A stretch of 64,000 nt of DNA from positions 1 through 64,000 of IMG/VR virus record IMGVR_UViG_3300046492_000163; one strand, given 5' to 3'. The translations under genes were made by a program, and so were the position numbers. This document shows positions 11,201 to 33,245 of this stretch, piece after piece (position 1 is the first letter of the stretch; the number at the start of each line of letters is the position of its first letter). Below the pieces are notes generated by a model. It saw only the letters and a program-made list of their open reading frames with translations, was not told where the DNA came from and made no database searches. This DNA comes from a virus (lineage: Duplodnaviria; Heunggongvirae; Uroviricota; Caudoviricetes).

Positions 11201-12581
11201 GACTATCTCTACTAAGAACAGCCAATGGGAAACACTGGCAGGAACTGTAACGGTTCCAGCAACTGTTGTCCGTGGTCGTCCTACGTTCCGGATGAGCCTG
11301 GGTGATGCAACTCCGCTGTGGATTACCAACATGCGTTGGACGAAGCAGACTGTTGCACAGGCCGGTAACGCAGCAGCAATCAGTTCACTGTCTGCAACTG
11401 TTGACAGCATGGATGGGATCGTTACTTCAACGGCAAAGGAAATTAGTAGTCTTACCGCCACTGCCAGACAGAACGATGGTACAGGTGATCTATCTGATGC
11501 TTTGAACTTGTGGCAGGCAACCGCGAAGATCCAGACTGAAGCAGTTGCCCGTGCTTCCGAAGATGGGGCAATGGCATCTAGGATTGATACGGTTAGTGCT
11601 CAGTTGAGTGACACCGCCGCGATGGTTCAGCAGGAGGCTATAGCAAGAGCCAACGGTGACTCAGCAGTTGCTAACTACACAACCTCTGTTCAGGCGAACC
11701 TGAATAACACCAACAGCAACTTGGCTACTACTAACGCGAACGTCACAACTGCGTCGAATGCTATTGCAACACTGAACGGTAAAGTAGCAGCATCGTACAG
11801 TATCAAGTTGGGGGTCAGCTATAACGGGTACTACTATGCCGCTGGCATGGGCATCGGGATTGAAAACACCCCGGCTGGTATGCAAAGCCAAGTGATCTTC
11901 CTGGCTGATCGTTTCGCGATCATGAATGGTGCAACTGCTAACTTCGTTGCTCCGTTCGTAGTGCAAGGTGGTCAGACGATCATCAACAACGCATTGATTG
12001 GTACAGCAAGCATTACTAACGCGATGATTGCCGATGCTCAAATCACCTACGCGAAGATTGCTGCGGCACAGATTGCTGATACCCATATCATCAACGGCCA
12101 CATCACCAACGCGAAGATTGGAGACGCAGCGGTTTCTACTGCGAAGATTCAAGACCTATCTGTGAACACGTTGAAGATTGCTGGTCGGGCTGTAACTGTC
12201 CCGATTGCTGTTTACTCTGAAGGTGTCGTGGGCTGCCCTGGTACTGTCAACGCACCTAACTGGACTGCTGTACAAGGTATAACGGTATCGAGTAGCGGTG
12301 ACGTGGGCTTGTTTAGCTTCACCTGCCAATTGAGTTTGAATAGTAATGCTGGCTACTGGCGTATCCGTCGTAGTGACGGTGCAATCCTGGCTTCGGGGCG
12401 TATGGCTGGAGATAACTTCAACTTCAACACCCCGGCTAACAGCTTCGCTATCAACATCCACCACTACTTTGCTGGCACGCTGGCCTTCTACCTCGACATC
12501 GCACCTTGGTACACCAATTTGGGAACCACCACGATGTATGTAGATAACCGTGCTATCACCTACACGAGTTTTATGCGATGA
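5295..12581 (+). CDS. J: central tail fibre / host specificity protein J-like, 2428 aa with long repeat-containing insertion
   Basis: N-terminal ~1100 aa collinear with lambda J (RYPNTAL, RGRL.QVP.NYNP.TR.YSG.W.GTFK, GGTEPR.TCN.Y, TYNRSNVV); four internal ~215-aa modules (GGSGTN.VPAE, D.YSWL..TTLP, MLCP.NNAAGWN); J-like C-terminal domain. Confidence 0.95.
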   Translation: MEQVVLEGHKGGSSTPHQPVEERNNLLSKSYAKVLLAIGEGEFAGTPTAENIYLDGTPLVSATGLQNFGGVKWEYRSGRSDQSHIPGMPDISNEFAIGLALTSTTPYTRLITNSQLDAIRITLAWPALYQQKDNGDIVGYNIVYAIDISTNGGAYVQQGQWDTGSGKTNVEYNRTHRLTLPKPGTSWTFRVRRITPNQNNAKFADIMQVKSYAEVIDAKLRYPNTALLYVEFDAEAFGGSSIPKVSIRTRGRLIQVPQNYNPDTRVYSGVWNGTFKWAWSDNPAWVFYDLVTNDRYGLGARITADMVDKWTLYQVSQYCDVMVPNGKGGTEPRYTCNVYIQARKEAWQVLRDIVGIFNGMLHWSGTQMVASADMPVAINTVRTYNRSNVVDGKFIYGSTSEKTIATTALVSFDDPENHFETAVEAVNELSLVQRYKTWNQAELAAIGCTSRGQAQRKGKYTMLTNSLNRVVTFKLGLEGYLPGPGDVIGVADQVLAGSQFSGRISTATLKVVTCDRVPNAVAGDILYINKADGTLGEGRTIQSVVGKVVTVTTNYSEIPAAELGWYVEKTTLKSQLYRVTKVAWSDNDGKFEVTGVQYEDSKYAAVDSGARLESRPITTVPAGGQAAPTGLTLTSFSYIEQTMAVTTLSVKWNPAAGAMKYEGQWRKDGGEWNNVGLTASTGFDVKGIYSGAYQARVRAINALGTKSIWLESANTQLTGKVGNPPSLATLTTVSEIFGIRINWTFSPGAEDGNYIQLQQATTDTGTGAADLTMVAYPAQTYLKSNMLGGAQLYFRGRLIDRSGNQSPWTAWTYGISEYGTDKILEAIVGEIERTELGQELLSELDFTKQDINWLEAEVTGLEQQVQNNISDLNDTISDVNIVVDGLHEQLDSAFSTPEYDAAKTYQKGEITRVGERLYQALINVPANTTPPNVTYWKDVGQVVSTVSGMAAQVQINTADVATLDGVTTAQAGLISGVKSTLDNIGGSGTNLVPAEYSVFGANKPEIVYGGTIATTVADATALYGYALKVTTNSTNATATIYTTPLETYAAFNMACKPGKYILSYYGKTDTAGHTIAMFLRGRNSADVAVSSTGAPQDALTTGWVRYSQVVDLTVASFADKDKMSIGIQVNRSGITGRVFYLDRIMLEPMLGENTAPSPFSVGNSFGKVDALATATTALTTSVNQHGLDITSQGQAITAVEASIGSMGGAGTNFVPDTYSWLGTATLPQTALSTATSLTSVPVTGSVSGYGYRYVKPNVAVPWFMLCPSNNAAGWNIPLVPGKYLMSFYASTDAQGVTDGLQVRAAMWDGSSKSPTDFTLTATRTRYTAVITIPNSNTYGFTLFFVGGVAGSIAWIDSPMLEKQVGNNTAPSPFVAGSSAATVVATAAAVTALTATVSQTGTTVDSHTNAITTINATVNNLGGSGTNMVPAEFSAFTSKVPTFSKAALLTVTTEADPAAYSGYLLRATNTTATVGHLYLGSTATDYNMRIAPDKKYIISFWAKGDVAHNVGIRIRYPNSAGTAVEIGLASVAITTTLARYSAVLTMPAAVVDRGVIVLYTQNTAAIGDTWFDGFMVEAAIGPAVTPSAFVPGNSMSQVIGQASATSALDARVVVTEGNMISTGNAITTINANIGKIGAAGSNLLNDDYSWLTSTTLPANVSGTSLARVGVAVPGSASGFGMKMTTASTSTGQFIMLCPTNNAAGWNVDLEAGLYLVSMYVQGSVAGTMRISMYDGTHRYSPIIAFTTTRTRLTFVCGATAFTRAAVTIYPNMAGLAAGAEITVDSVMVEKTANDVSSQVPSPFVAGNSARALSALATVTNAMGTTVSQHGTDINTAANNILSLQTSVGGQTQENYVLDPTFNVDKAGLSNSSQVTIVPQTDVTVPLGSSVPRLARWDVPTSTGNTYLGWQCVTLQRSPASTITASMAPGEVYEVSCDVYMDVAGAARQHGIWFQFYDAAGASISHNWVVGTISTKNSQWETLAGTVTVPATVVRGRPTFRMSLGDATPLWITNMRWTKQTVAQAGNAAAISSLSATVDSMDGIVTSTAKEISSLTATARQNDGTGDLSDALNLWQATAKIQTEAVARASEDGAMASRIDTVSAQLSDTAAMVQQEAIARANGDSAVANYTTSVQANLNNTNSNLATTNANVTTASNAIATLNGKVAASYSIKLGVSYNGYYYAAGMGIGIENTPAGMQSQVIFLADRFAIMNGATANFVAPFVVQGGQTIINNALIGTASITNAMIADAQITYAKIAAAQIADTHIINGHITNAKIGDAAVSTAKIQDLSVNTLKIAGRAVTVPIAVYSEGVVGCPGTVNAPNWTAVQGITVSSSGDVGLFSFTCQLSLNSNAGYWRIRRSDGAILASGRMAGDNFNFNTPANSFAINIHHYFAGTLAFYLDIAPWYTNLGTTTMYVDNRAITYTSFMR

Positions 12582-12958
12582 AAATCGTTCAATATGATAC
12601 AACGACAGGGAAAATCCATAGTGTTCAAACTATGGATGACCTGACGATGAGTGACGACTACAGGGCGTTTCTGGGGGAAGAGGGGGTGCTGTACCTCCCC
12701 TCTGTCTTCACCGCTCACATCAGCGACGTGAAGCACTACGTCAACGATTCGACGGTTATGGAGCGTCCTACCTCCACTATCTATTTAGACGGTGCAACAC
12801 TATGTAATGTCAGGGAAAATGCCAGTGTAATAATCGACGGCGTTAGCTACGAGGCAGACGGAAGTGATATAACTTTAGAGTTTTCCCACCCCGGAACCTA
12901 CCAACTAACCGTCAAAGACTGGCCTTTCCTCGACTGGGAAGGAACTTATGAAAATTAA
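12578..12958 (+). CDS. hypothetical protein (ATGA overlap with J stop)
   Basis: 126-aa ORF translationally coupled to J. Confidence 0.5.
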   Translation: MKIVQYDTTTGKIHSVQTMDDLTMSDDYRAFLGEEGVLYLPSVFTAHISDVKHYVNDSTVMERPTSTIYLDGATLCNVRENASVIIDGVSYEADGSDITLEFSHPGTYQLTVKDWPFLDWEGTYEN

Positions 12959-13525: not shown

Positions 13526-14356
13526 ATGGCTTGGTATTCTACCGGGTCGATCACTGCAACGAACAATAGCGGAGCAATAACGGGCGTGGGAACGTCCTTT
13601 ATGACGAACGTACGGATCGGAGACGGCGTTACCATCACCGGTAGCACGTCCATCCATGAAGTTGTTAACGTGACCAGTGACACCCAACTAACTGTTGCAC
13701 CCGTCTACGGTGGAACAACCGGCAGCGGTAAAACTTACAGTATCGTCCCTGTTCAGGGATATACAAAAAGCTTGGCCGACCAGGCTAAGTCACTCCTTCT
13801 CTCTTTCAGTTCTGTAGGGTCTTCACCCAGCGTAGCGGCGTTGGCCGGTATCACGGGGGCTGCGGACACGATTCCTTACTTCACGTCGGGCTCAACGATG
13901 TGGACAACGCCGCTAACTCTTCAGGCACGCGGACTACTAGATGACACAACTCCTGCTGCAATGCGTACAACCCTTGGGTTGGGTTCGGCAGCAGTAGCCA
14001 ACATCGTCGGTAGTGTAGGAGCCGGGAATATCATCGAAACTGCAACTAACGGGAACGGCACTTACGTGAGGTTCCAGGATGGAACGCAAATCTGTTTCCG
14101 AACCTTTTTCGGCACCACGACGATGTATGGGTTAGGTAATGGTATCTACTATGGCGTTATCAATGGTCTGACTTGGGCTGCCTCCTTTATTGATGGAGGA
14201 TACGCAGTAGCGTGCTCTGGAGCAGACTCGGCATCAGTAGGCTGGGTATCTGGTGGAGTAACTAGCGTTTCTGATTACGTCATCTATTACTTTTCTCTGT
14301 CCGGCACCCACACAAGTACAGGACTACGATTTATTGCCATAGGGAGGTGGAAGTAA
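13526..14356 (+). CDS. side tail fibre protein, Stf-like paralogue 1
   Basis: 276 aa; conserved AALAGITGAADTIPYFTSG...LL...MRTTLGL segment resembles the LPYF region of lambda Stf / P2 gpH; N-terminal 90 aa shared with two downstream paralogues. Confidence 0.8.
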   Translation: MAWYSTGSITATNNSGAITGVGTSFMTNVRIGDGVTITGSTSIHEVVNVTSDTQLTVAPVYGGTTGSGKTYSIVPVQGYTKSLADQAKSLLLSFSSVGSSPSVAALAGITGAADTIPYFTSGSTMWTTPLTLQARGLLDDTTPAAMRTTLGLGSAAVANIVGSVGAGNIIETATNGNGTYVRFQDGTQICFRTFFGTTTMYGLGNGIYYGVINGLTWAASFIDGGYAVACSGADSASVGWVSGGVTSVSDYVIYYFSLSGTHTSTGLRFIAIGRWK

Positions 14357-15180
14357 TGGCCTGGTATGGAGTGGGCACTGTAACCGCAACAAACAACAGT
14401 GGAACTATTACGGGTGCAGGCACTGCCTTCATCTCTAATATTCGTGTAGGAGATGGTATTACCCTAGCGGGTAGCACTTCACTTCACGAAGTAACTAACA
14501 TCGTTAGTGAAACTCAACTAACGGTTTCTCCCGTATATGGTGGAACAACCGGTGCAAGTAAGACTTACGCCGTTGTACCAGTACAGGGGTATGTACAAGG
14601 CTTGGCGGATCAAGTTAAGAACTTGGTCCTCACGTTTGGCAACGTAGCCGCTAACGCTTCAGTTAATGCCTTAATGACGGTCACTGGTGCAGCGGACAGG
14701 CTTCCGTACTTCACTAGCGGCACAACTATGGCTACAACTGGCCTCACGCCTCTAGCGAGAACTTTGCTCGATGACGGATCAACTGGTTCAATGCGTACAA
14801 CTCTTGGATTGAAGACTGCGGCTGTATACGACGCGGTTGGTTCTGGAGGGATTATAGAACGGGGTGCTAACGCTAACGGCGAGTACACCAAGTTCGTAGA
14901 CGGCACTCTAATTTGTTGGTTCTATCAAACCATCGCAGCTAACTTGTCTTCAACAGGCTACGGAAGTGGTGCATATAACTCTTATAACTGGACCTTCCCT
15001 GTAGCTTATGCAGCGATTCCAGGATTAGCCGTACAAGCTGTAATTGCCGGTCGTATCATTTTCTGCGGACAGACAACTGGGATTACAAATAGTGCTGCTG
15101 GTTGTTTCTTCTGGGACGCATACGGCACTGCCCAGGCGCCGATGCTTACACGCTGGATGGCTATAGGGAGATGGGGATAA
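14356..15180 (+). CDS. side tail fibre protein, Stf-like paralogue 2
   Basis: ATG at 14356 overlaps stop of paralogue 1 (TAATG); GGGAGGTGG RBS; same N-terminal/middle architecture, divergent C-terminal ~80 aa. Confidence 0.8.
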   Translation: MAWYGVGTVTATNNSGTITGAGTAFISNIRVGDGITLAGSTSLHEVTNIVSETQLTVSPVYGGTTGASKTYAVVPVQGYVQGLADQVKNLVLTFGNVAANASVNALMTVTGAADRLPYFTSGTTMATTGLTPLARTLLDDGSTGSMRTTLGLKTAAVYDAVGSGGIIERGANANGEYTKFVDGTLICWFYQTIAANLSSTGYGSGAYNSYNWTFPVAYAAIPGLAVQAVIAGRIIFCGQTTGITNSAAGCFFWDAYGTAQAPMLTRWMAIGRWG

Positions 15181-17075: not shown

Positions 17076-17653
17076 TGGCTAAGGCAACTTACGTTACTAA
17101 CTCTACGGGTAGTAACTGGGTTGACATCGTGGTAGGTGAGTGTACAATTGCTTCAGTAGCAATGACTGCAACTTCTCAGGACACACTAGTTGCTCTGAGA
17201 ATTCTCAAGGGTGGTACAACACCCTCGCTTATCCTTCCCGGTAATACCCTTTCTCTTAATACTCCACATCGCCCTGCCGTTGGTGGCATCTGCCTCAAGC
17301 CAACTGACAAACTTCAATGTTTATCAGAGTTTGCGGTAAGTTGGATCACCACAGTTGTAACTGGCTCTGCTTATAACTCAGCAGTGGCAACTTCCCCGGC
17401 TGGTGGTGCCTGGACAACCTTGGCAACTGGCCCTGTAAACCTTCGGGCTGTCTTCGCCTGTGTGCCCTCTGGCGGCACTGTAGGCATCCGGCTACACAAA
17501 ACCGCATCTGATACCTCTATCGTCCTCGCAGAGGCTGTAGACCTGGCTGGAGCTAAGCGTCTGCTGACTCCGCTTGTCTTGGCCTCGGGAGAAACTTTGC
17601 AAGTTCAAAGCACAACTAGTGCCCAGTGGATTGCATCAGGGATCGGGACATAA
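17075..17653 (+). CDS. hypothetical beta-rich tail protein
   Basis: 192 aa, Ser/Thr/Gly/Ala-rich. Confidence 0.5.
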   Translation: MAKATYVTNSTGSNWVDIVVGECTIASVAMTATSQDTLVALRILKGGTTPSLILPGNTLSLNTPHRPAVGGICLKPTDKLQCLSEFAVSWITTVVTGSAYNSAVATSPAGGAWTTLATGPVNLRAVFACVPSGGTVGIRLHKTASDTSIVLAEAVDLAGAKRLLTPLVLASGETLQVQSTTSAQWIASGIGT

Positions 17654-23181: not shown

Positions 23182-23513
23182 ACACTTACCTCAACTTTAG
23201 TTAAAACTAAACGAATAAAACGATATAACTTCTGACAACCAAGGTATTGCTCTAAGGAATCACCGTCAAGTGTAAAAGAAAATTTTCTCAGACACTTGAC
23301 AGGGGTTTTTGGAGCGGGCAGGATGCATCACATCGGAGCGAAACACAGCCGATCCACAGCGAAGTACCAGCAGTACCACATAGAGCACCCAAGATCCCTG
23401 CCCACTACTAGTAGCACGAGTGGAACACGCAGAACGATCTTCACAATACAGAACCGATTTCTAGCCTGATGGAGGTAGTTACCATCAGGCATTGTTGCGT
23501 CCGGAGTTTAACG

Positions 23514-23816: not shown

Positions 23817-23966
23817 GTGGCAAAGAAGAAGAAGGGTAAAAAGAAGAAGTCCCTTCCAAGGAATCTGGTAGCGAAACACCTACCGAAGCAACACAAGAGC
23901 GTCCCATTCAGGGACAAAACCAAATACAGTCGCAAAGACAAAGAGAAATCACAGAATGACCATTAA
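23817..23966 (+). CDS. very basic 49-aa peptide (Lys-rich), GTG start
   Basis: VAKKKKGKKKKSLPRNLVAKHLPKQHK...; starts right after the previous stop and overlaps the next ATG; not in ORF track (below cutoff). Confidence 0.3.
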   Translation: MAKKKKGKKKKSLPRNLVAKHLPKQHKSVPFRDKTKYSRKDKEKSQNDH

Positions 23967-27475: not shown

Positions 27476-28165
27476 CTGGAACTAACCCGTTGAATCTACT
27501 GATAAAAAATTTCACTTCACACCTCGTCGTGACAAAGCCCACACGGACTAATCCTGTGGACGGTTTTTGGTCAAGATCGAGGGTGAATCAGTAGACAAGA
27601 CGGAGTGATCCCGCTAAAATCAAGTCTACTGAATCGAGAATTCCCGCCGCTTAAAACAGGATTCTTCCTCGATTCCGGGACCAGGGGGTTGGTAGCTCCG
27701 CTGATCCCTTCAAAGCCTCGCTTAGTGCGGGGCTTTGTCGTTGATGGGGCTGAGATTAGTCCCGTTCATCGACTAACGCAATACCCGATTGTAAAATCAA
27801 TTTCTCTTGACTTCCAGATTGAGCTGTGGCAGGCCGGATTGGCAACCCCAGCGAAGCGCCGGGTTGACGATGCGGCCTGCCACAGCCGACAAGCGAAGCG
27901 CGTCAGTGCTCCAGGCACCTCGATTCCCCCTGCCAAAACACCCCCTAAAAGAAAAGAAGCTTTTCCGAACCCCCGGTTTTATTACCTTTCGCCCGTTTTT
28001 TATAAACTATGCTCTTATGACCCGTAAGCTATTTCCTTACAGGTTGTAATTTAATGGGGTATAAAAGACAATGGCGCAATCGGGGTACGGAGGGGCTGTT
28101 TTTGACCCATCCTCTAGTACCTTGATTTAGAAGATTTTCCCGATCACCTGGAGGGGCACGCAACC

Positions 28166-28654
28166 ATGGCACGCGACAAGAAAACGGTTAAAAATCGTAC
28201 AGAGACGATCATCACCGATCACAAGACTGGGGAGGTTTTGAGCCAAGAATCGACCGTCACTTACAAAGTCCCACAAGAGCCGGACTTCGTGAAGGTGTAC
28301 ATCGAGTCCTTCACGGACATGGGACTGAGGGATCACCATGTGACCCTACTCTTCCAACTCGTTCGCAAAATGAACTACGAGAACGTGATTGCTCTCACAC
28401 CGGGCGCTCGGGTCAGGATCGGGGAAAAGCTGAAGATCCAGCAACAAACCTTCCGCAATTACCTGGCTGTTCTACTGGAGGCAGATATATTCCGGCGAAT
28501 AGGTCACGGAGAGTTCATGGTGAACCCGACCTACATTGCGAAGGCGAGGTTTGAGGAAAACGTAGCTCGACAGAAGATTTATTACAAAATCAAGCAAGTA
28601 AAGACTAAGAAAGGCCGAACTCCGAAGCCCAAGGAAGTTGCTCCAGATACTTGA
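28166..28654 (+). CDS. winged-HTH DNA-binding protein (candidate plasmid-type Rep or regulator)
   Basis: 162 aa; QQTFRNYLAVLLEADIFRRIGHGEFMVNP looks like recognition helix + wing; preceded by 690-bp repeat-rich non-coding DNA; convergent with par operon. Confidence 0.5.
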   Translation: MARDKKTVKNRTETIITDHKTGEVLSQESTVTYKVPQEPDFVKVYIESFTDMGLRDHHVTLLFQLVRKMNYENVIALTPGARVRIGEKLKIQQQTFRNYLAVLLEADIFRRIGHGEFMVNPTYIAKARFEENVARQKIYYKIKQVKTKKGRTPKPKEVAPDT

Positions 28655-28701: not shown

Positions 28702-29238
28702 TTACTTGAGCTGCATCTTTCTCAATGTCTCAGCAGCCTTCTCGGGGGTGAGAAACCTATTGTGGGTCAACCACATGATCAACCCTTCCATTAGGATTGT
28801 CTGCCCAGTCAGGCCCCGAATTTCTTTCCGTGCTTCATCAACTACTTCGAACAGGTCGGGCGGAACTTGCACGCTCATTTGACTTGAGTTCTTTTTCTTC
28901 GTGCGATCATGTACAGGTGCGGCAAACATTACCGGCACCAGTTCTGGTTCAGGTTGAGCTGAAGTAACGAAAGTAATTGGTGGTTTCACGGGTTCTGGTT
29001 CTGGTTGACCTGGTTCTTCAGCAACTTTTGCTACAGGTGCGGCAGGCTGCGGTGCAACTTCCGGGGCATCCGCGATCTTGTGCAGCAATTGTTCAACCTC
29101 TTGCACTGGTGCGGGAGCTGGGGGCTCGACCGCTTCCGCTGGTGCCGCTGGCTGTAGTGGCACGGCTGTTGGATTGGGCGTTGCCTTCTCAGCCATTATC
29201 CCCGGTCTAAGGATGGATTCGCGTCGAGTGCGTGTCAT
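28702..29238 (-). CDS. ParG-like centromere-binding protein (RHH C-terminal domain, Pro/Ala-rich disordered N-terminus)
   Basis: C-terminus SVQVPPDLFEVVDEARKEI..GQTILMEGLIMWL fits a beta-strand-helix-helix (RHH) layout; downstream of parA; alternative start at 29196. Confidence 0.55.
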   Translation of the reverse strand: MTRTRRESILRPGIMAEKATPNPTAVPLQPAAPAEAVEPPAPAPVQEVEQLLHKIADAPEVAPQPAAPVAKVAEEPGQPEPEPVKPPITFVTSAQPEPELVPVMFAAPVHDRTKKKNSSQMSVQVPPDLFEVVDEARKEIRGLTGQTILMEGLIMWLTHNRFLTPEKAAETLRKMQLK

Positions 29239-29289: not shown

Positions 29290-29420
29290 CGGGTGGGTAC
29301 TCGGCTACCTACCAGAGTACCACACCGCCTACCTATTTGAATGGGTAACTGGGTAAGTACCCAACTGAGTAAATGGGTAGATACCCAGAGGTATATACAA
29401 GTGGGTAACTGGGTACTTAC
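29290..29420. repeat. centromere-like palindrome cluster (TGGGTA-NN-TACCCA units) downstream of parA
   Basis: TGGGTAAGTACCCA, TGGGTAGATACCCA, TGGGTACTTACCCA; the 31-bp block at 29370..29400 recurs at 31021..31051 with 1 mismatch. Confidence 0.5.
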
Positions 29421-29465
29421 CCACCTACCCACTCCAATACCCAAGCAGGGCAGTAAGGAATTAGG

Positions 29466-30224
29466 TCACTGGCTACTCACCAGCTTGAGTCCACGGGTGC
29501 CTTCTTTGACACCCAGCGACTTGCCTGCAACCTTCGGCCCGACCTTCGCCCGTTTCTTGACTTTTTCCTTGGGTTTCCGCAACTCAGCAGGTACTGGGTT
29601 CGGTTCTTTGATGCCAACTTCTTGCAGGATGAACTCAACCAGGTTGTCGATTTCCTCCACGCCTTGGTGGTTGGGATCGTATTCGTCCAAGGATTCGCCC
29701 CAGCCCATGCAAGTCTTAAAGGCAGTTGCTCGATGGACAATGCCCGCAACTTTCCCCACGCGGGAAAGCTCCATGACGGTTTCGGTTGTGATCCGTTCGC
29801 GTTTATCAACGATGTTCATCAGGAACACGGAGCGAGCGTGGTGTTCGGTCAGCGTGCCGAAGGTGTCGGCTGTACCTTCCAAATCCAATGGGCTTGGCTG
29901 GCACGGCACAACTACCAGATCGGCAATTTCATAAAGCTTGGACAGTTCTTCGTGCTTCCAGCCGGGGGTGTCGATCACGACACAATCCACGCCCAACTCC
30001 CGCAATTCATCGAGCCTTGGGCGAAGTTGTTCGAACGTAACTTTCAGCAGTTCGGGGAACTGAGATTCACGGCGTTCCCACCAGCGTTTGATGCCGCCTC
30101 GGTGGTGGTCAACGTCAATTAGAACGGTGTAGTAGCCACGGTTATCCAGGTTGACGCCAACCTGGGCGGTGATGGTGGACTTGCCTACACCCCCCTTTTC
30201 GTTGGCAACAGCGAAAATTTTCAT
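29466..30224 (-). CDS. parA: ParA/Soj-family partition ATPase (type Ib size)
   Basis: MKIFAVANEKGGVGKST deviant Walker A; GAGGAA RBS before ATG at 30224; ORF-track N-terminal extension to 30305 rejected. Confidence 0.9.
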   Translation of the reverse strand: MKIFAVANEKGGVGKSTITAQVGVNLDNRGYYTVLIDVDHHRGGIKRWWERRESQFPELLKVTFEQLRPRLDELRELGVDCVVIDTPGWKHEELSKLYEIADLVVVPCQPSPLDLEGTADTFGTLTEHHARSVFLMNIVDKRERITTETVMELSRVGKVAGIVHRATAFKTCMGWGESLDEYDPNHQGVEEIDNLVEFILQEVGIKEPNPVPAELRKPKEKVKKRAKVGPKVAGKSLGVKEGTRGLKLVSSQ

Positions 30225-30299
30225 TGGGTGTTCCTCTATATAGGTGCTCACCTGGGTGAGCGGTTCCTTGCTTAAGTGATTGCTTGCGCGAATCCCCGC

Positions 30300-31060
30300 A
30301 TCCATGCGTGATTGGGCGAACGCTTACCTGTGTAAACGAACGGGTATGTCCCTAAGTCCGCAGTTCCCTGAGTAACTGAGTAAAGACGGAAGCGTGCAAT
30401 TACGCATTCACTTACGTCCGCAACCGGGCGAGTAATGGCTCACGGGCGTGGTTCCCCACTTCTTCCCTTGGGCGTCCACCTGTGTGAGCACGCACTCGGT
30501 TGCTCAATTACCTAAGTCAGTAGCCAGTTCCCCACGTACCTCAATGAGGAAGTCACCACCTACCTAGGCAAACACCTGGGCAAGTACATACCTGCTTGGG
30601 TGTTTACTCAGACGCATGCGTCCTTACCTGGGGATTTAACTACTCGGGTGGGTAATTGTCAACTTACTCGCACAATTAATGTAATACGCGCCTACCCACG
30701 TACCCAACCAAGCGAGTCCCTAGGGAGGTAGGTAGGTGCATGGTTGGTTGAGTAGTTGAGTGTGGAGGTAGGTACTCAGACAACCACCTAGTTACCCAAA
30801 TAGGTAAGTGAATGGCTACTGGCGTACCTATGGAATTACCTGAATACGCAAGGGATTACGCACCCACACACGTACCCGGTTAGGTAAGCACACAAGTGAT
30901 TACGTGGTTCCTTGCGTGCTGGAGTATGCGGTGACGTACTGGTGTACTGGAGTACCCAAATGAGTAATTACCCAAGTGAGTAGCTGGGTAGGTGGGTAAG
31001 TACCCAAAAGGGTAGATGGGTAAATGGGTAGATACCCAGTGGTATATACAACCTGTTTGA
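30300..31060. repeat. repeat-rich non-coding region upstream of parA (degenerate GGTAAG/TACCCA and ATTAC motifs); candidate centromere
   Basis: no credible ORF; >8 ATTAC(C/G) copies and many GGTA/TACC half-palindromes; perfect TGGGTA-NN-TACCCA units at 31000..31040. Confidence 0.45.
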
Positions 31061-31449
31061 TTTCCCGCTTGGCAGGGTCTGCCACCAGGTGTTGAGGCAG
31101 CAGCCGCAGCCCGAAGTTCTGTGAGCCTCTGTGAGGCCTTATAGGAGGTCGGCAACCCATTAGTAGCCTCGCCCTGGCAACGTCGCCTGGCTGGGCTATA
31201 GTGAAGGCGGGTAAGGTGTTGCCGGACGAATTTTCCCCATAACCCGGCATTCACGCAGATCAGGACGGGGTTGCCTCTGGCGTGCTGAAAGATGCGCGTA
31301 CAGCGAGTACGGACAGACACGGCCTTACCTGAAGCCCTGCCATGACCTGGTGGGGCTTTTTATTGTCCTACAATAATCCACTGTACATCTACACAGTGGT
31401 GGCTATACTGAGTACGTCAACCTCGGGCAGACCGTCAATCTTCCCATTT

Positions 31450-31480
31450 AGCCGCCCCTCACCAGGGCGGCTTTCTTTTG
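31450..31480 (+). terminator. intrinsic terminator
   Basis: GCCGCCC-ctcacca-GGGCGGC + TTTCTTTT. Confidence 0.55.
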
Positions 31481-31488
31481 TCCAATGC

Positions 31489-31580
31489 CGCTACAGGGGG
31501 CCTGGCTCCCAGAATGCCCGTACAGGGGGCTAGCCCCCAGTTTCCTCATAGGGGGGTATGCACTACACGGGGGTGGGTTG
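31489..31580. repeat. ACAGGGGG-core repeat cluster (4 copies, irregular spacing) incl. perfect palindrome GGGGGCTAGCCCCC
   Basis: tacagggggc x2, cataggggggt, acacgggggtg. Confidence 0.4.
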
Positions 31581-31688
31581 CGGTGGTGCCGCCTGTCAGG
31601 TAGGATCGCCGTGCGTGTCCGAGACTGTAGCTTCGACAGGGGTGTACCTGCTCCATCCCGTGGGTACATCAGAACAGAAGCATTGATC

Positions 31689-31720
31689 AGCCGCTTAGCC
31701 CACCTAAGCGGCTTTTCTTT
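31689..31720 (+). terminator. intrinsic terminator
   Basis: AGCCGCTTAG-cccacc-TAAGCGGCT + TTTCTTT. Confidence 0.55.
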
Positions 31721-31857
31721 GCCTGGTGGAAAGGCATCCTGGTGTTGACCTGGTGTTGACCTGGTGTTGGTCCGACCGATGTGGTAACGTGCCTGGGCTT
31801 TCCTTGTGTTGTGTTGTAATGGCAGGGGTGGGGAACTCGTAAACCCCCACCCATTGA

Positions 31858-31890
31858 AAAGGCCGTCCTCTTGGACGGCCTTTTCTTTGT
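31858..31890 (+). terminator. intrinsic terminator
   Basis: GGCCGTCC-tctt-GGACGGCC + TTTTCTTTG. Confidence 0.55.
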
Positions 31891-31923
31891 CCGGTAGAAA
31901 GTCCTGGTCCGACCTGGTTAAAC

Positions 31924-32295
31924 TTGGATAAACCTGGTGAGGGAACAGACATGCCCTACTATGACGGTCGTTGGCATCTATATAGCGAGCAAGAACGCCG
32001 CGAATATGGCGAGCGGAAGCGTGCCGAGTTGAGTAAGAAGTGGCACGCCAAGTGGATCAGTAGACAGGGCCTGAAAGATCGGCTCTGGACTGATAAGGCG
32101 ATCCAGGATTTTCTAGGTAAGCCTCGGGCAGCAGGCGCGATTAAAGCTTGGCTACGCAAGGATGTATTGCGGGCAGAGCGTGGCCCTGAATTCCAGACCT
32201 GGATGGAGAAACGCCGTAGATGGTTGGCGGCACGCGGCAAGCTACCCGCACCATATCCCCTGCCGGACAACGTGTTCCCCATTCGCCCGATGTGA
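31924..32295 (+). CDS. hypothetical basic protein (Arg/Lys/Trp-rich)
   Basis: 123 aa; lies between the two ACAGGGGG repeat clusters; alternative start at MPYYDG. Confidence 0.45.
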   Translation: MDKPGEGTDMPYYDGRWHLYSEQERREYGERKRAELSKKWHAKWISRQGLKDRLWTDKAIQDFLGKPRAAGAIKAWLRKDVLRAERGPEFQTWMEKRRRWLAARGKLPAPYPLPDNVFPIRPM

Positions 32296-32349: not shown

Positions 32350-32733
32350 TTATGCAGCGGCAGACACTTGCTTCCAGCTCAGAACTTCGTCTTTGCCGTA
32401 CTTGCCGATCCACTCTTGAATCTTCTTCTTCAAGATGTTCGCCGCTCGCACGACTTCCCCAGTGTGTGGGTTTTTGTACTCAGTAAAGACTGTGTTCGGT
32501 CCTGCCTTCTTCGGCTTCTTCTCTTTGACCTCTACCACTGGCGGTACATAGTTCGGATCAAGGATCGTGTTCACATCTACCAAGGACATCCCGTATTTGG
32601 CTAGGAGTTCTCGCTGCTCAGCTTCGAAGGCCTGGAGCTTCTGTAGCTGGGGGTTATTCTCAAGCTCTTGAAGGCGGCGCTGTACGGCTTCGAACTCTGC
32701 TCTTGCTTCGTGTAGCTGCTTTACCAATGACAT
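32350..32733 (-). CDS. MvaT/MvaU-family H-NS-like nucleoid-associated protein (xenogeneic silencer homologue)
   Basis: 127 aa; MSL...coiled coil...ILDP...Lys-rich linker...EYKNPHTGEVV...LSW matches P. aeruginosa MvaT (LLDPDA, QYKNPHTGEVIETKGG...ESW), recalled from memory. Confidence 0.85.
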   Translation of the reverse strand: MSLVKQLHEARAEFEAVQRRLQELENNPQLQKLQAFEAEQRELLAKYGMSLVDVNTILDPNYVPPVVEVKEKKPKKAGPNTVFTEYKNPHTGEVVRAANILKKKIQEWIGKYGKDEVLSWKQVSAAA

Positions 32734-32892
32734 TCCGTTGCGTATCCGTGTTTGTTGTTAGGAGGCCGCACTATATCGCCCTGGATGAGACAACGGAAGA
32801 CCTGGTAGAGAGAACCCGATAAGTGAGAGAGAAAATTCCTCGATGCTCGACCTGGTTCTATCTTGATTGACCTGGATAAGCCTGGGTGTTCC

Positions 32893-32985
32893 CACTACAG
32901 GGGGGTGCTGGATTTCCCCACACGGGGGTACTGGATTTGCCCACAGGGGGGTCGCCAATGTCGCCACAGGGGGGTGGCCCCCTCG
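32893..32985. repeat. iteron array: 4 direct repeats, exact 23-bp phasing, core CCACAGGGGGGT
   Basis: GGGGGT ends at 32906, 32929, 32952, 32975; first two units also share (G/A)CTGGATTT. Confidence 0.6.
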
Positions 32986-33181
32986 GGAGTTCTCGCCCTG
33001 GTTGATCCAGGTAAGTCGTCCAGGTTGAGCCAGGTCCCCGCCCAAAATCCCCCGGCATCGAGCATCGATCCCCTGTCTGAACAGCGGACAGGCAGAAGCC
33101 CCCGGCTGGCCCGTAGGCCCCGGATTTGGCGCTATATAGAAGGGAATCGACGGCTGAAAAGAATTTGAAGAAGCGGCTTTA

Positions 33182-33198
33182 CTGTACGATTCATACAG
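33182..33198. promoter_or_regulatory. operator-like palindrome CTGTA-N7-TACAG (copy 1 of 4)
   Basis: CTGTACGATTCATACAG 48 nt upstream of gene 33246. Confidence 0.4.
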
Positions 33199-33245
33199 CC
33201 TAGGCTTGCCCCTATCGAAACGAGAAAGCCCCTAGGGGTGTAGGA

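Follow-up and report, generated by a model that had tools for sequence, protein, structure and literature searches.

The main repeat array of this phage (32889-32975, plus strand) is a genuine, conserved, iteron-like element that keeps its sequence and orientation independently of the Rep, Par, and immunity modules, and it is not made up of cognate iterons of any initiator encoded at the locus. Tentatively, and at less than even chances, we read it as a conserved cis-acting docking platform with an upstream regulatory or architectural role rather than as iterons cognate to a Rep protein. The window, i.e., the whole stretch of 64,000 nucleotides that was analyzed, is part of a ~107-kb phage known only from metagenomes. 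This phage carries a plasmid-maintenance module with RepL (28166-28654), ParA, and 8-bp centromere-like repeats (TGGGTA/TGAGTA arrays at 29337-29445 and 30368-31057), and it has a T7-like replisome, with genes for a primase-helicase, Pol A, and a 5'-3' exonuclease.

Four 18-nt units in exact 23-bp phase make up the main array, namely TTCCCACTACAGGGGGGT (32889-32906), ATTTCCCCACACGGGGGT (32912-32929), ATTTGCCCACAGGGGGGT (32935-32952), and ATGTCGCCACAGGGGGGT (32958-32975), and direct reading places their ACAGGGGGGT-type cores at 32897, 32920, 32943, and 32966, all on the plus strand. The original prediction of four perfectly phased 23-bp iterons was correct for the phase and not for the copies, since only copies 3 and 4 contain the exact 12-mer CCACAGGGGGGT, and copy 1 (CTACAGGGGGGT) and copy 2 (CCACACGGGGGT) each depart from it at one position. 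CCCCCT at 32979-32984 is complementary to the last G-run and forms with it a short hairpin or a partial inverted copy. Tandem Repeats Finder reports a period of 23 at 32897-32952 with a score of 91, the second highest in the window after that of the centromere-like array. A second, less regular cluster with a related core and a perfect palindrome had also been claimed, and it was recovered as four looser units at 31485-31574 on the plus strand (31493-31574 when counted from the first core). Their cores start at 31493, 31522, 31548 (ATAGGGGGGT), and 31565 (ACACGGGGGT), i.e., at spacings of 29, 26, and 17 bp (Tandem Repeats Finder period 29), and the palindrome GGGGGCTAGCCCCC lies among them at 31525-31538.

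The core string ACAGGGGG occurs six times in the 64 kb against 2.3 expected; five of these occurrences fall in the main array and the upstream cluster, and the sixth (46319) is located within an ORF. None of 500 dinucleotide shuffles gave four A[CT]A[GC]GGGGG matches within 100 bp on one strand, the biggest cluster in any of them being 1. A chance origin of the repeats was rejected on the basis of this excess, the Tandem Repeats Finder score, and the shuffles. A weight matrix for the motif built from all relatives recovers eight strong sites in the window, all of them on the plus strand and in the two non-coding clusters, with scores of 21.7-27.6 bits in the main array and 18.9-23.9 bits in the upstream cluster. 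The array, with a GC content of 0.64-0.69, is the most GC-rich DNA of the region. In a full-text literature search, the motif string turned up nothing but primers and unrelated sequences, and comparing the region with plasmids and phages by megablast gave nothing useful. Rfam gave no match above threshold; the best one, at 31815-31887, was RNAI-like and reached 29 bits where the gathering score is 47.

The upstream cluster starts 13 nt past a plus-strand terminator (31450-31472) and ends 3 nt ahead of the weak -35 of a promoter-like element that abuts it (31578-31606, plus strand, TTGCGG-N17-TAGGAT). Because this -35 scores just 3/6, the element is missing from a consensus promoter scan, and we treat it as a putative promoter; a non-coding unit of ~100 nt follows, with a terminator (31689-31713) at its end. 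The same layout of a site, a TTGCnn-N17/18-TAGnnT element that the after-terminator site abuts or overlaps, and a terminator is found in the related contigs L002, L127, L129, and L145. Directly left of the main array, ACCTGG(T/A)-type repeats occupy 32849-32886 on the plus strand at ~10-11 bp spacing (ACCTGG at 32850 and 32870, degenerate copies at 32860 and 32880), and directly right of it the inverted hexamer CCAGGT occurs at 33007, 33020, and 33030 (32996-33036, minus strand), so that the array is flanked by inverted ACCTGG blocks, as it is in L145. Similar blocks are present at 31737-31770 (3 x 11 bp, perfect) and 31902-31938, and the density of CCWGG is 17.4 per kb in the control region versus 2.9 per kb across the window. 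That the CCTGGTG(G) repeats are Chi-like is an idea only.

An early-operon promoter-like element, placed by comparison with relatives (33179-33207, plus strand, TTTACT-N17-TAGGCT), lies 213 bp downstream of the last array unit and holds the palindrome CTGTACGATTCATACAG (33182-33198) in its spacer. The palindromes at this position vary among relatives (CTGTA..TACAG in the window and L129, CAGCATG..CATGCTG in L124 and L126, CTATAG..CTATAG in L002 and L127; L145 was compared as well) and are therefore likely immunity operators; the ACAGGGGG units are alike in all lineages, and an immunity-operator reading of the units was rejected on these grounds. As the original prediction had it, the two clusters flank a gene for a 123-aa basic protein (31924-32295, plus strand), which has no Pfam, PHROG, or PDB match and no tblastn match in any relative, and an mvaT-like gene (32350-32733, minus strand; PF22055, MvaT_DBD) that is transcribed away from the array. 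The bracketing did not extend to the relatives as a conserved feature: the mvaT-like gene is found in most of them, but L122 retains the array without an mvaT cassette, and upstream sites number one or two in other relatives and are located elsewhere.

The motif, its strand, its position, and a roughly 23-bp phase are kept in nine lineages, namely the window, L002 (=L123), L122, L124 (=L125), L126, L127, L128, L129, and L145 (=L146), where the L128 contig stops after one upstream site, short of the main array. Relatives carry 4-5 units at a spacing of 21-31 bp, all weight-matrix matches in the relatives and the window lie on the plus strand in non-coding DNA, and the array is under selection. 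In relatives, two other conserved promoters each have a single site ahead of their -35, at distances of 40 and 44 bp; the promoters near sites are predictions, and the site-promoter geometry was read by sequence inspection. In six relatives, an AT-rich block (62-70% AT, TAGCTAAC repeats) is located 60-110 bp downstream of the array, giving the order array, AT-rich repeat block, and GC-rich block that is also seen in L148, a member of an unrelated phage group. The interval from parA to the early operon is otherwise highly mosaic. The type of ParA/ParB-like proteins co-varies with the 8-bp repeats (TGGGTA in the window and L126, TGCGTA in L002 and L127, ATGGGTC in L124 and L128) and the ACAGGGGG units do not co-vary with Par type; a centromere reading of the units was rejected because the Par proteins have this separate repeat family. 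More distant SPFH-bearing phages and a Pseudomonas megaplasmid were not syntenic, and a collection of species-representative genomes contained no relatives of the SPFH protein or RepL.

Near-identical 23-bp units are also present in an unrelated group of small siphoviruses (L148/L149/L057) and in the cultured Roseobacter phages CRP-811 and CRP-6, none of which have a locus-encoded DNA-binding protein in common with the window phage; likewise, no protein with a DNA-binding signature common to the three array-bearing phage groups was found. In CRP-6 and at the downstream array of the L148 group, the units stand at the head of an operon with their G-rich strand as the coding strand, and AT-rich DNA and then a promoter come after them. 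Single units are found 4-6 nt ahead of the ATG of gene X in L148 and of an HTH_37 gene in L002 and L127, where they serve as the ribosome-binding regions. A scan of viral contigs for three ACAGGGGG copies returned more than 119 loci, mostly unrelated G-rich repeats, of which only L034 (the same contig as L002) and L057 were convincing on re-analysis. The hosts appear to be Alphaproteobacteria for the Roseobacter phages and are probably Gammaproteobacteria for phages of the window type, as judged from the MvaT-like gene and the Pseudomonas relatives of the SPFH protein.

Several proteins of the locus were considered as binders of the units. The 123-aa basic protein was dropped because none of the array-bearing relatives has it. 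MvaT prefers AT-rich DNA; the sites are G-rich and persist in L122 without a phage mvaT gene, which makes host MvaT an unlikely binder. RepL was abandoned because L145 keeps the sites without it and the O-like initiators have repeats of their own. Proteins universal to the array loci have no recognizable DNA-binding domain, and RepL, the O-like initiator, ParA and its partner, the 123-aa protein, and the immunity repressor are all disfavored. With no locus-encoded binder left, the units would be expected to be read either by a factor of the host or by a core protein that the phage encodes beyond the available sequence, and given the apparently wide host span a common host factor would need to be very broadly conserved.

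The array had been proposed as an iteron-controlled theta origin without a classical Rep encoded nearby. The latter point was wrong: the winged-helix protein in the Rep slot (28166-28654, plus strand) belongs to the RepL family (Pfam PF05732, E=2.5e-11, above the curated cut-off), where it forms a clade of 12 proteins in a family of about 1,700. Its AlphaFold model had low confidence (pLDDT 53.7) and conveyed a generic winged-helix topology only, and a PDB sequence search with RepL and the ParB-like protein gave no homologue. That the repeats are classical iterons for this RepL, marking a plasmid-prophage origin or a copy-control (handcuffing) locus, is suggested by their canonical geometry within the maintenance module, by the invariance of both the motif and the RepL helix-turn-helix plus wing within the clade, and by 7/7 outgroup RepL loci (including small plasmids such as Pseudomonas pBYT5-6 and the phages HS5 and phiSG1) that carry 3-4 direct repeats with a period of 21-22 bp, from which RepL replicons would be of the iteron type. 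However, the outgroup repeats differ in sequence and lie 60-200 bp upstream of repL, whereas the 690 bp upstream of the window repL contain no repeat array, nothing comparable flanks this gene, and the array is found 4.2 kb downstream of it, on the far side of the par operon. A C(A/T)CAG-type core seems by eye to be common to the motif and the outgroup iterons, but the motif weight matrix ranks the latter only 6th-56th in their own loci (combined p about 0.16). Moreover, the P1 oriL is located inside repL (PMC9948254). In the closest relative, L145, an unrelated O-like initiator with its own upstream repeats replaces RepL, which neither tblastn nor hmmsearch --max detected in 21 kb of that contig, yet eight ACAGGGGG-type sites (one degenerate) are retained; the O-like initiators of L122 and L145 have their own co-varying palindromic repeats. 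By lineage the Rep slot thus holds RepL, an O-like protein, or both while the motif stays constant, and iterons for RepL are a very doubtful explanation. The distance to repL, the GC-rich composition, and the unchanged state of the array after replacement of RepL in L145 also speak against any Rep-controlled theta origin. Of the features of an iteron-type origin, the repeat geometry is present and under selection; an adjacent, co-varying cognate Rep, DnaA boxes, and, in the window, an unwinding element next to the array were not found.

An origin that is independent of Rep would escape this objection, as independence from the Rep slot is what it predicts: the array and the downstream AT-rich block would form a replication start at which a host initiator or transcription/R-loop priming acts before the phage T7-like replisome takes over. 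The succession of array, AT-rich block, and GC-rich block in the six relatives and L148 fits such a start, as do the primase-helicase, Pol A, and 5'-3' exonuclease that CRP-6 has in common with the window phage and the G-runs that are always on the coding strand. G-runs on the coding strand favor stable RNA:DNA hybrids, as in ColE1 and mitochondrial CSBII. The T7 primary origin, T4 oriF/oriG, and ColE1 resemble the locus in combining an oriented tandem element whose G-rich strand is coding with, in most relatives, an AT-rich stretch; in contrast to those origins, the units are not demonstrable promoters, and the AT-rich stretch is missing from the window. Here, the AT-richest 40-bp segments within 100 bp of the array reach only 0.50-0.55 AT, so that there is no AT-rich unwinding element in that range, and the flanks of the window and L145 arrays have 28-40% AT (L145 also lacks an AT-rich block after the array by eye). 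No DnaA box (TTATCCACA) was found at <=1 mismatch in the control region of the window or six relatives; there were only 2-mismatch matches, two of them within array units. The TTTCC..CACA half agrees with the box at 7/9 positions in two window units and inconsistently elsewhere, and the TTTTCCACT unit of L148 agrees with the relaxed form TTWTNCACA at 8/9 by eye. Furthermore, no promoter was seen ahead of the main array, the replisome of L148 is of a different type, and cumulative GC skew neither peaks nor bottoms out at 32.9 kb, although in this phage it tracks the direction of the genes. Altogether, we consider an origin of this kind rather unlikely, though it is the rival to be taken most seriously.

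Packaging or terminus-proximal sites (cosB- or pac-like) bound by the small terminase subunit would offer a core protein that stays constant while Rep, Par, and immunity modules are swapped, in line with a binder that must be host-encoded or a core phage protein. The lambda cosB R sites and pac repeats are similar in grouping several ~16-bp protein sites near an operon start, and the arrays of CRP-6 and L148 lie upstream of terS/terL operons, that of L148 by 1.5 kb from terS and that of CRP-6 60-170 bp from the end of its linear record; the L057 contig terminates inside its array. Early operons commonly begin near a genome end. Against packaging, gp01 starts at base 1 of the CRP-6 record, whose ends may therefore be arbitrary, assemblies are in any case expected to break within tandem repeats, and the ~107-kb contigs begin at unrelated positions with no fixed end at the array. 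The window array is distant from packaging genes (the terminase genes of this phage lie outside the window), and extra copies are dispersed beside small-RNA-type promoters, all of which makes packaging sites improbable. If the "terminator plus unit" junctions instead acted as homology patches for cassette shuffling, comparable to the promoter-stem-loop junctions at module boundaries of T4-like phages, this would account for arrays bracketing variable cassettes within the mosaic interval, i.e., the 123-aa and mvaT genes in the window, a small-RNA unit plus mvaT and a CCTGG block in L145, the HTH_37 gene in L002/L127, and gene X in L148. We find this very unlikely, since a ~23-bp phase, 4-5 copies, and a bipartite motif with a variable spacer suggest molecular recognition and the phased array of L122 brackets no cassette. 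Least probable of all seems a role in RNA or the transcription bubble, in which leader G-runs resembling Shine-Dalgarno sequences would recruit 30S subunits or stabilize mRNA, or the non-template strand would act as a pausing or antitermination signal where a long operon begins. AGGGGGU and GGAGGGG do pair with the anti-Shine-Dalgarno sequence, the units ahead of ATG codons are placed accordingly, and the downstream array of L148 lies inside an operon with the G-rich strand coding, as always. However, the window array may not be transcribed, since a convergent gene precedes it and the only convincing early promoter comes after it; in addition to the lack of an Rfam match, neither a hairpin nor covariation was consistently seen, and the conserved TTTCC half has no obvious function in RNA.

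The docking platform that we tentatively favor would consist of asymmetric bipartite sites of ~17 bp with the consensus (A)TTTCCnY(A/T)ACAGGGGG(G)T, arranged as 4-5 units head-to-tail about two helical turns apart, a spacing that would place bound protein on a single side of the helix. The sites always point toward the downstream operon and would mark the starts of rightward units, either directly after terminators or abutting weak "-35" elements, with the large array preceding a second repeat family or an AT-rich stretch and then the early promoters. From this orientation and position, the sites can be read as an activator or insulator array for downstream promoters, and the constancy of the array despite the swap of initiators probably indicates that the units form a docking array in front of an operon and not an origin of the classical plasmid kind. 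Protein binding and a regulatory role are thus suggested by the arrangement of the sites. Some observations fit this less well: between the main array and the first convincing rightward promoter there are 210-450 bp, a long way for a simple activator, the gap to the mvaT promoter ranges from ~10 to 95 bp, the AT-rich block after the array in six relatives and L148 also suits an origin, and AGGGGGU and GGAGGGG mimic Shine-Dalgarno sequences strongly enough for a role at the RNA level to be possible.

Among known systems, direct-repeat binding sites of monomeric activators with two subsites (AraC/XylS/MarA type) and phased upstream activating sequences come close to the putative platform as asymmetric bipartite sites of ~17-20 bp in direct repeats ~21-23 bp apart, with an orientation that follows the promoter and small clusters that abut or overlap weak -35 elements. 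This is a resemblance in general layout; no such protein was identified in the locus, and the main array is remote from the nearest promoter. Plasmid iterons (RK2 oriV, pPS10, P1 incC/incA, F ori2) likewise comprise 4-5 repeats of ~17-18 bp in the same orientation ~22-23 bp apart, in a maintenance module near a par locus and, as in most relatives, followed by an AT-rich and then a GC-rich block. Unlike plasmid iterons, the units studied here have no adjacent cognate Rep gene, stay the same whichever initiator (RepL, the O-like protein, or both) fills the Rep slot, lack an AT-rich unwinding element and DnaA boxes in the window, and occur as extra promoter-proximal copies and in unrelated phages. 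Stoperators of the mycobacteriophage L5 type share the short asymmetric sites in one orientation relative to transcription and their placement in short intergenic spaces, including those after terminators, but they are spread genome-wide and co-vary with the repressor, whereas the present units are constant across immunity types and confined to one control region.

A more general reading, which we hold to be unlikely and put forward with reserve, is that the 23-bp unit is an undescribed phage cis-element, widely shared and read by a universal host machine instead of a protein specific to the phage. It could then mark an R-loop-primed replication start or a pausing/antitermination signal on the G-rich coding strand, and would head major operons in unrelated alpha- and gammaproteobacterial phages while outlasting exchanges of the modules for initiation, partition, and immunity.

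It is unusual for an array shaped like iterons to be uncoupled from the initiator gene, and this warns against calling origins from repeat geometry alone. As a by-product, the 21-22-bp iterons upstream of repL in 7/7 loci add to what is known of RepL replicons, whose mechanism is poorly known. The locus further documents an uncharacterized group of ~107-kb phage-plasmids, so far metagenome-only, in which replication, partition, and immunity modules are exchanged around a constant control element. It also raises the question of what reads a 23-bp unit common to unrelated phages of different host classes, for which the cultured phages CRP-6 and CRP-811 make the element experimentally accessible.

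The main array comprises four ACAGGGGGGT-type cores at 32897, 32920, 32943 and 32966 on the plus strand, all in direct reading and at a spacing of exactly 23 bp, as the original prediction had stated, and was scored by Tandem Repeats Finder at period 23 with a score of 91. The predicted fourfold repeat stands for the phased cores but not for one identical sequence, since the exact 12-mer CCACAGGGGGGT occurs in only two copies and copies 1 and 2 deviate (CTACAGGGGGGT and CCACACGGGGGT, respectively). The second, less regular cluster was also seen as described, with cores at 31493, 31522, 31548 and 31565 and the perfect palindrome GGGGGCTAGCCCCC within it. Five of the six occurrences of ACAGGGGG in the 64 kb fall within the two clusters, the sixth lying within an ORF, and a chance product was ruled out, as four motif matches in 100 bp on one strand arose in 0 of 500 dinucleotide shuffles.

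Relatives were recruited via RepL and the neighbouring SPFH protein. The clade is known from metagenomes only, mostly as contigs of ~100-108 kb; neither plasmid nor phage collections gave a near match to the window, and species-representative genomes yielded no relative. In all lineages whose contigs cover the region, the motif keeps its strand and its location, with the leftward mvaT/parA genes on one side and the rightward operon on the other, and comprises four to five units. Successive spacings are 25, 31, 25 and 23 bp in the related loci L002 and L127, 25, 21, 23 and 23 bp in L124 and L126, 47, 25 and 21 bp in L129, 24, 24 and 23 bp in L145, and 23, 23 (a degenerate copy) and 23 bp in L122. 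The extended consensus is approximately (A)TTTCCnY(A/T)ACAGGGGG(G)T, and all weight-matrix hits are non-coding and on the plus strand. Bracketing of the mvaT cassette, part of the original prediction, is not a conserved property, because in L122, where the cassette is missing, the array persists in perfect phase at 220 bp from parA. A link between the array and the 123-aa basic protein (31924-32295) was rejected, as this gene is unique to the window and absent from the relatives.

Repeats of ACCTGG(T/A) at a spacing of ~10-11 bp also occur in this region, at 31737-31770, 31902-31938 and 32849-32886 and, inverted, at 32996-33036, with counterparts at 17195-17375 and 17503-17540 in L145; in both loci the main array is flanked on both sides by inverted ACCTGG(T) blocks. 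CCWGG is enriched 5-6 times in the window control region. Several copies of the family read CCTGGTG(G), which is 7/8 identical to E. coli Chi, and are oriented as for an end between them; that they are Chi-like sites is an idea only. The 21.3-kb L122 locus has neither CCTGG repeat blocks nor a single CCWGG in 21 kb, where ~40 would be expected by a rough estimate, whereas the other relatives have 5.6-7.9 per kb, which suggests strong restriction avoidance in that lineage.

The 23-bp unit also occurs in other phage groups. L148 and L149, from a two-unit pattern search of IMG/VR, and L057, from re-analysis of a prior scan, represent a small lambdoid-like siphovirus group that encodes RusA, exonuclease VIII, a RepA-type primase-helicase and terS/terL, and that has no protein in common with the window group save a tail-fibre fragment. 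Their units, GAGCTTTTCCAYYACAGGGG(G)T, recur every 23 bp exactly. Two are placed after a terminator and ahead of the ATG of a 230-aa gene, and at least four run from the stop codon of that gene, followed by AT-rich DNA and a promoter-like element. BLAST with this array matched cultured Roseobacter phages: CRP-811 has two units (…TTTTCCATCGGAGGGG) after the homologous gene, and CRP-6 has five in a divergent control region, oriented with the late operon; behind them come some ten copies of another repeat, and then AT-rich DNA and a promoter. CRP-6 has only T7-like replisome proteins in common with the window group, and only one function-unassigned gene and tail genes in common with the L148 group. 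The three groups show no locus-encoded DNA-binding protein in common.

The window is phage DNA, with tail genes at 0-20 kb, a leftward DNA-metabolism block (ribonucleotide reductase, thymidylate synthase, 5'-3' exonuclease), a long rightward operon of small genes starting at 33.2 kb, a XerC/D-like recombinase, and a primase-helicase and Pol A encoded just past its right end. Placed between those phage gene blocks is a plasmid-maintenance module. The earlier claim that no Rep is encoded nearby is contradicted by a 162-aa RepL-family protein at 28166-28654 (PF05732, E=2.5e-11), which is accompanied by a small ParB-like protein (28702-29238) and ParA (29466-30305), both leftward. The parB-like/parA operon is flanked by 8-bp periodic TGGGTA/TGAGTA arrays in inverted orientation (29337-29445 and 30368-31057), presumably comparable to the parH/ParG arrangement of TP228 with its 8-bp period. 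Because the 8-bp unit sequence changes with ParA/ParB-like type among relatives (the L002 array spans ~900 bp), these repeats are the likely partition centromere; the 23-bp array, which shows no such co-variation, was rejected for this role. Among the small genes of the loci, conservation is highest for that at 23817-23966, which encodes a 49-aa extremely basic protein (KKKKGKKKKSLPRNLV...) with 79-92% identity in 7/7 relatives.

RepL itself was tested as the cognate binder of the array, and its recognition helix and wing, invariant throughout the clade, count in favour. Outgroup RepL loci (L131, L132, L133, L135, L139, L140 and L141, comprising phages HS5, phiSG1 and Vibrio 1.148.O, one metagenomic contig, and three small plasmids from Pseudomonas, Aeromonas and Arsenophonus, 2.8-5 kb in size) carry, in 7/7 cases, three to four direct repeats of 21-22 bp period 60-200 bp upstream of repL, a pattern that points to iterons as a general feature of RepL replicons; those of pBYT5-6 are followed by AT-rich repeats. 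The weight matrix of the 23-bp motif did not single out these outgroup iterons, and the 690 bp upstream of the window's repL contained no direct repeats. The closest relative available, L145 (SPFH 86%, p152 75% and p177 72% identity, with the same operator type as the window), yielded no RepL in its 21-kb locus by tblastn or by hmmsearch with the clade profile. Its Rep slot, the initiator-gene position of the module, is occupied by a 207-aa protein with matches to 'replication initiation O-like / DnaD-like' PHROG families. This protein has no relationship to RepL (hhalign probability 0.2%) and shares 60% identity with the second initiator-like gene of L122. Since L145 nevertheless keeps eight ACAGGGGG-type sites (one degenerate) in a window-like layout, the array is not the cognate iteron set of the Rep-slot initiator, be it RepL or O-like.

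Three to six palindromic repeats lie just upstream of the O-like (HTH_36) genes, TGGGCTA-N4-TAGCCCA in L145 (12642-12863) and TGAGCTA-N4-TAGCTCA in L122 (14908-15047); their half-sites differ by one base and co-vary, and they probably serve replicons of this type as origin or operator. L122 carries, besides its O-like initiator, a RepL-like C-terminal domain fused to an N-terminal T5orf172/MUG113 (GIY-YIG-like) domain (14031-14858). In the window, the AT content of the region peaks at 27960-28080 (GC 0.35-0.40), immediately upstream of repL, and oriL of P1 is located within repL (PMC9948254); the real Rep-associated repeats and origin would more likely be found at the Rep slot than at the array. 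The 690-bp non-coding stretch 27476-28165, which includes this AT-rich segment, blocks conserved in relatives, a hairpin with 26-bp arms (27823-27886) and a terminator-like element, is a candidate site of the actual origin or control region associated with RepL.

Smaller motif clusters recur directly 3' of Rho-independent terminators, where they abut or overlap TTGCnn-N17/18-TAGnnT promoter-like elements in the window, L002, L127, L129 and L145, each element being followed by a short unit closing in a terminator. Single motif sites in relatives precede the -35 of two other conserved promoters, by 40 and 44 bp. A divergent intergenic region of the window contains a conserved rightward promoter whose -35 (TTGACA) is overlapped by the 28-bp palindrome AGTGTAAAAGAAAATTTTCTCAGACACT (23269-23301); a ACAGGGGG unit is found 40 bp upstream of the TTGACA in relatives and none there in the window. 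The early-promoter spacer contains a palindrome at 33182-33198, with equivalents in L002, L124, L126, L127, L129 and L145 that differ by lineage (CTGTA..TACAG, CAGCATG..CATGCTG or CTATAG..CTATAG); relatives have another copy ~230 bp upstream, and the window's version, CTGT-N9-ACAG, is one base longer than a LexA box. These palindromes look like operators that define immunity groups, a role rejected for the 23-bp array, which is constant where they vary.

A canonical SOS box (CTGT-N8-ACAG) overlaps a promoter with the -10 TATACT/TATAAT (window 31381-31409 and 31450-31472; L002 ~12195-12320; L124 ~12745-12860; also L126, L129 and L145); behind it comes a unit of 60-110 nt with GTCAACCTCGG at its start and a terminator at its end. 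As this arrangement is conserved beside mvaT in all relatives, the unit is a candidate LexA-controlled small RNA or peptide. Close to parA, a conserved non-coding block of ~300 nt (L002 11186-11532; L124 12200-12530; also L126, L127 and L128), divergent in the window, combines a TTGCAG-N17-TAGAGT promoter-like element with a terminator; it is reminiscent of the non-coding RNA close to parABS on which extrachromosomal mycobacteriophage prophages depend for their replication (PMC7157519).

The oriented, phased direct repeats do have the iteron geometry of the original prediction, but the window's array has no link to an initiator, lacks both an AT-rich element within 100 bp and a nearby DnaA box (≤1 mismatch), and lies in the most GC-rich DNA of its surroundings (0.64-0.69). 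In six relatives, an AT-rich TAGCTAAC-repeat block follows 60-110 bp downstream of the array, and then a conserved GC-rich block; the window and L145 have their inverted ACCTGG(T) blocks instead. A Rep-independent origin, primed by transcription or by a host initiator, is a live alternative, as are a terminase or terminus-proximal site, an element acting in RNA or in the transcription bubble, and a recombination element at the module junction. The 2.3-kb IMG/VR contig L093, unrelated by protein content, has CGTACAGGGGGGTACGTCA units of 21-bp period beside an AT-rich stretch (150-260), possibly representing the iterons of a small circular replicon.

Judged from the sequence comparisons, the array is oriented, phased and bipartite, has the character of a set of recognition sites, marks where rightward transcription units begin, and is invariant through module exchange. 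We favour, with modest confidence, a docking platform for a host or core phage factor that would act, once bound, on the neighbouring promoters in a regulatory or architectural capacity. Arrays of phased direct repeats are familiar as a kind of element; one of iteron shape, uncoupled from an initiator and common to unrelated phages, is an unusual variant, and the cultured Roseobacter phages give experimental access to this array system.
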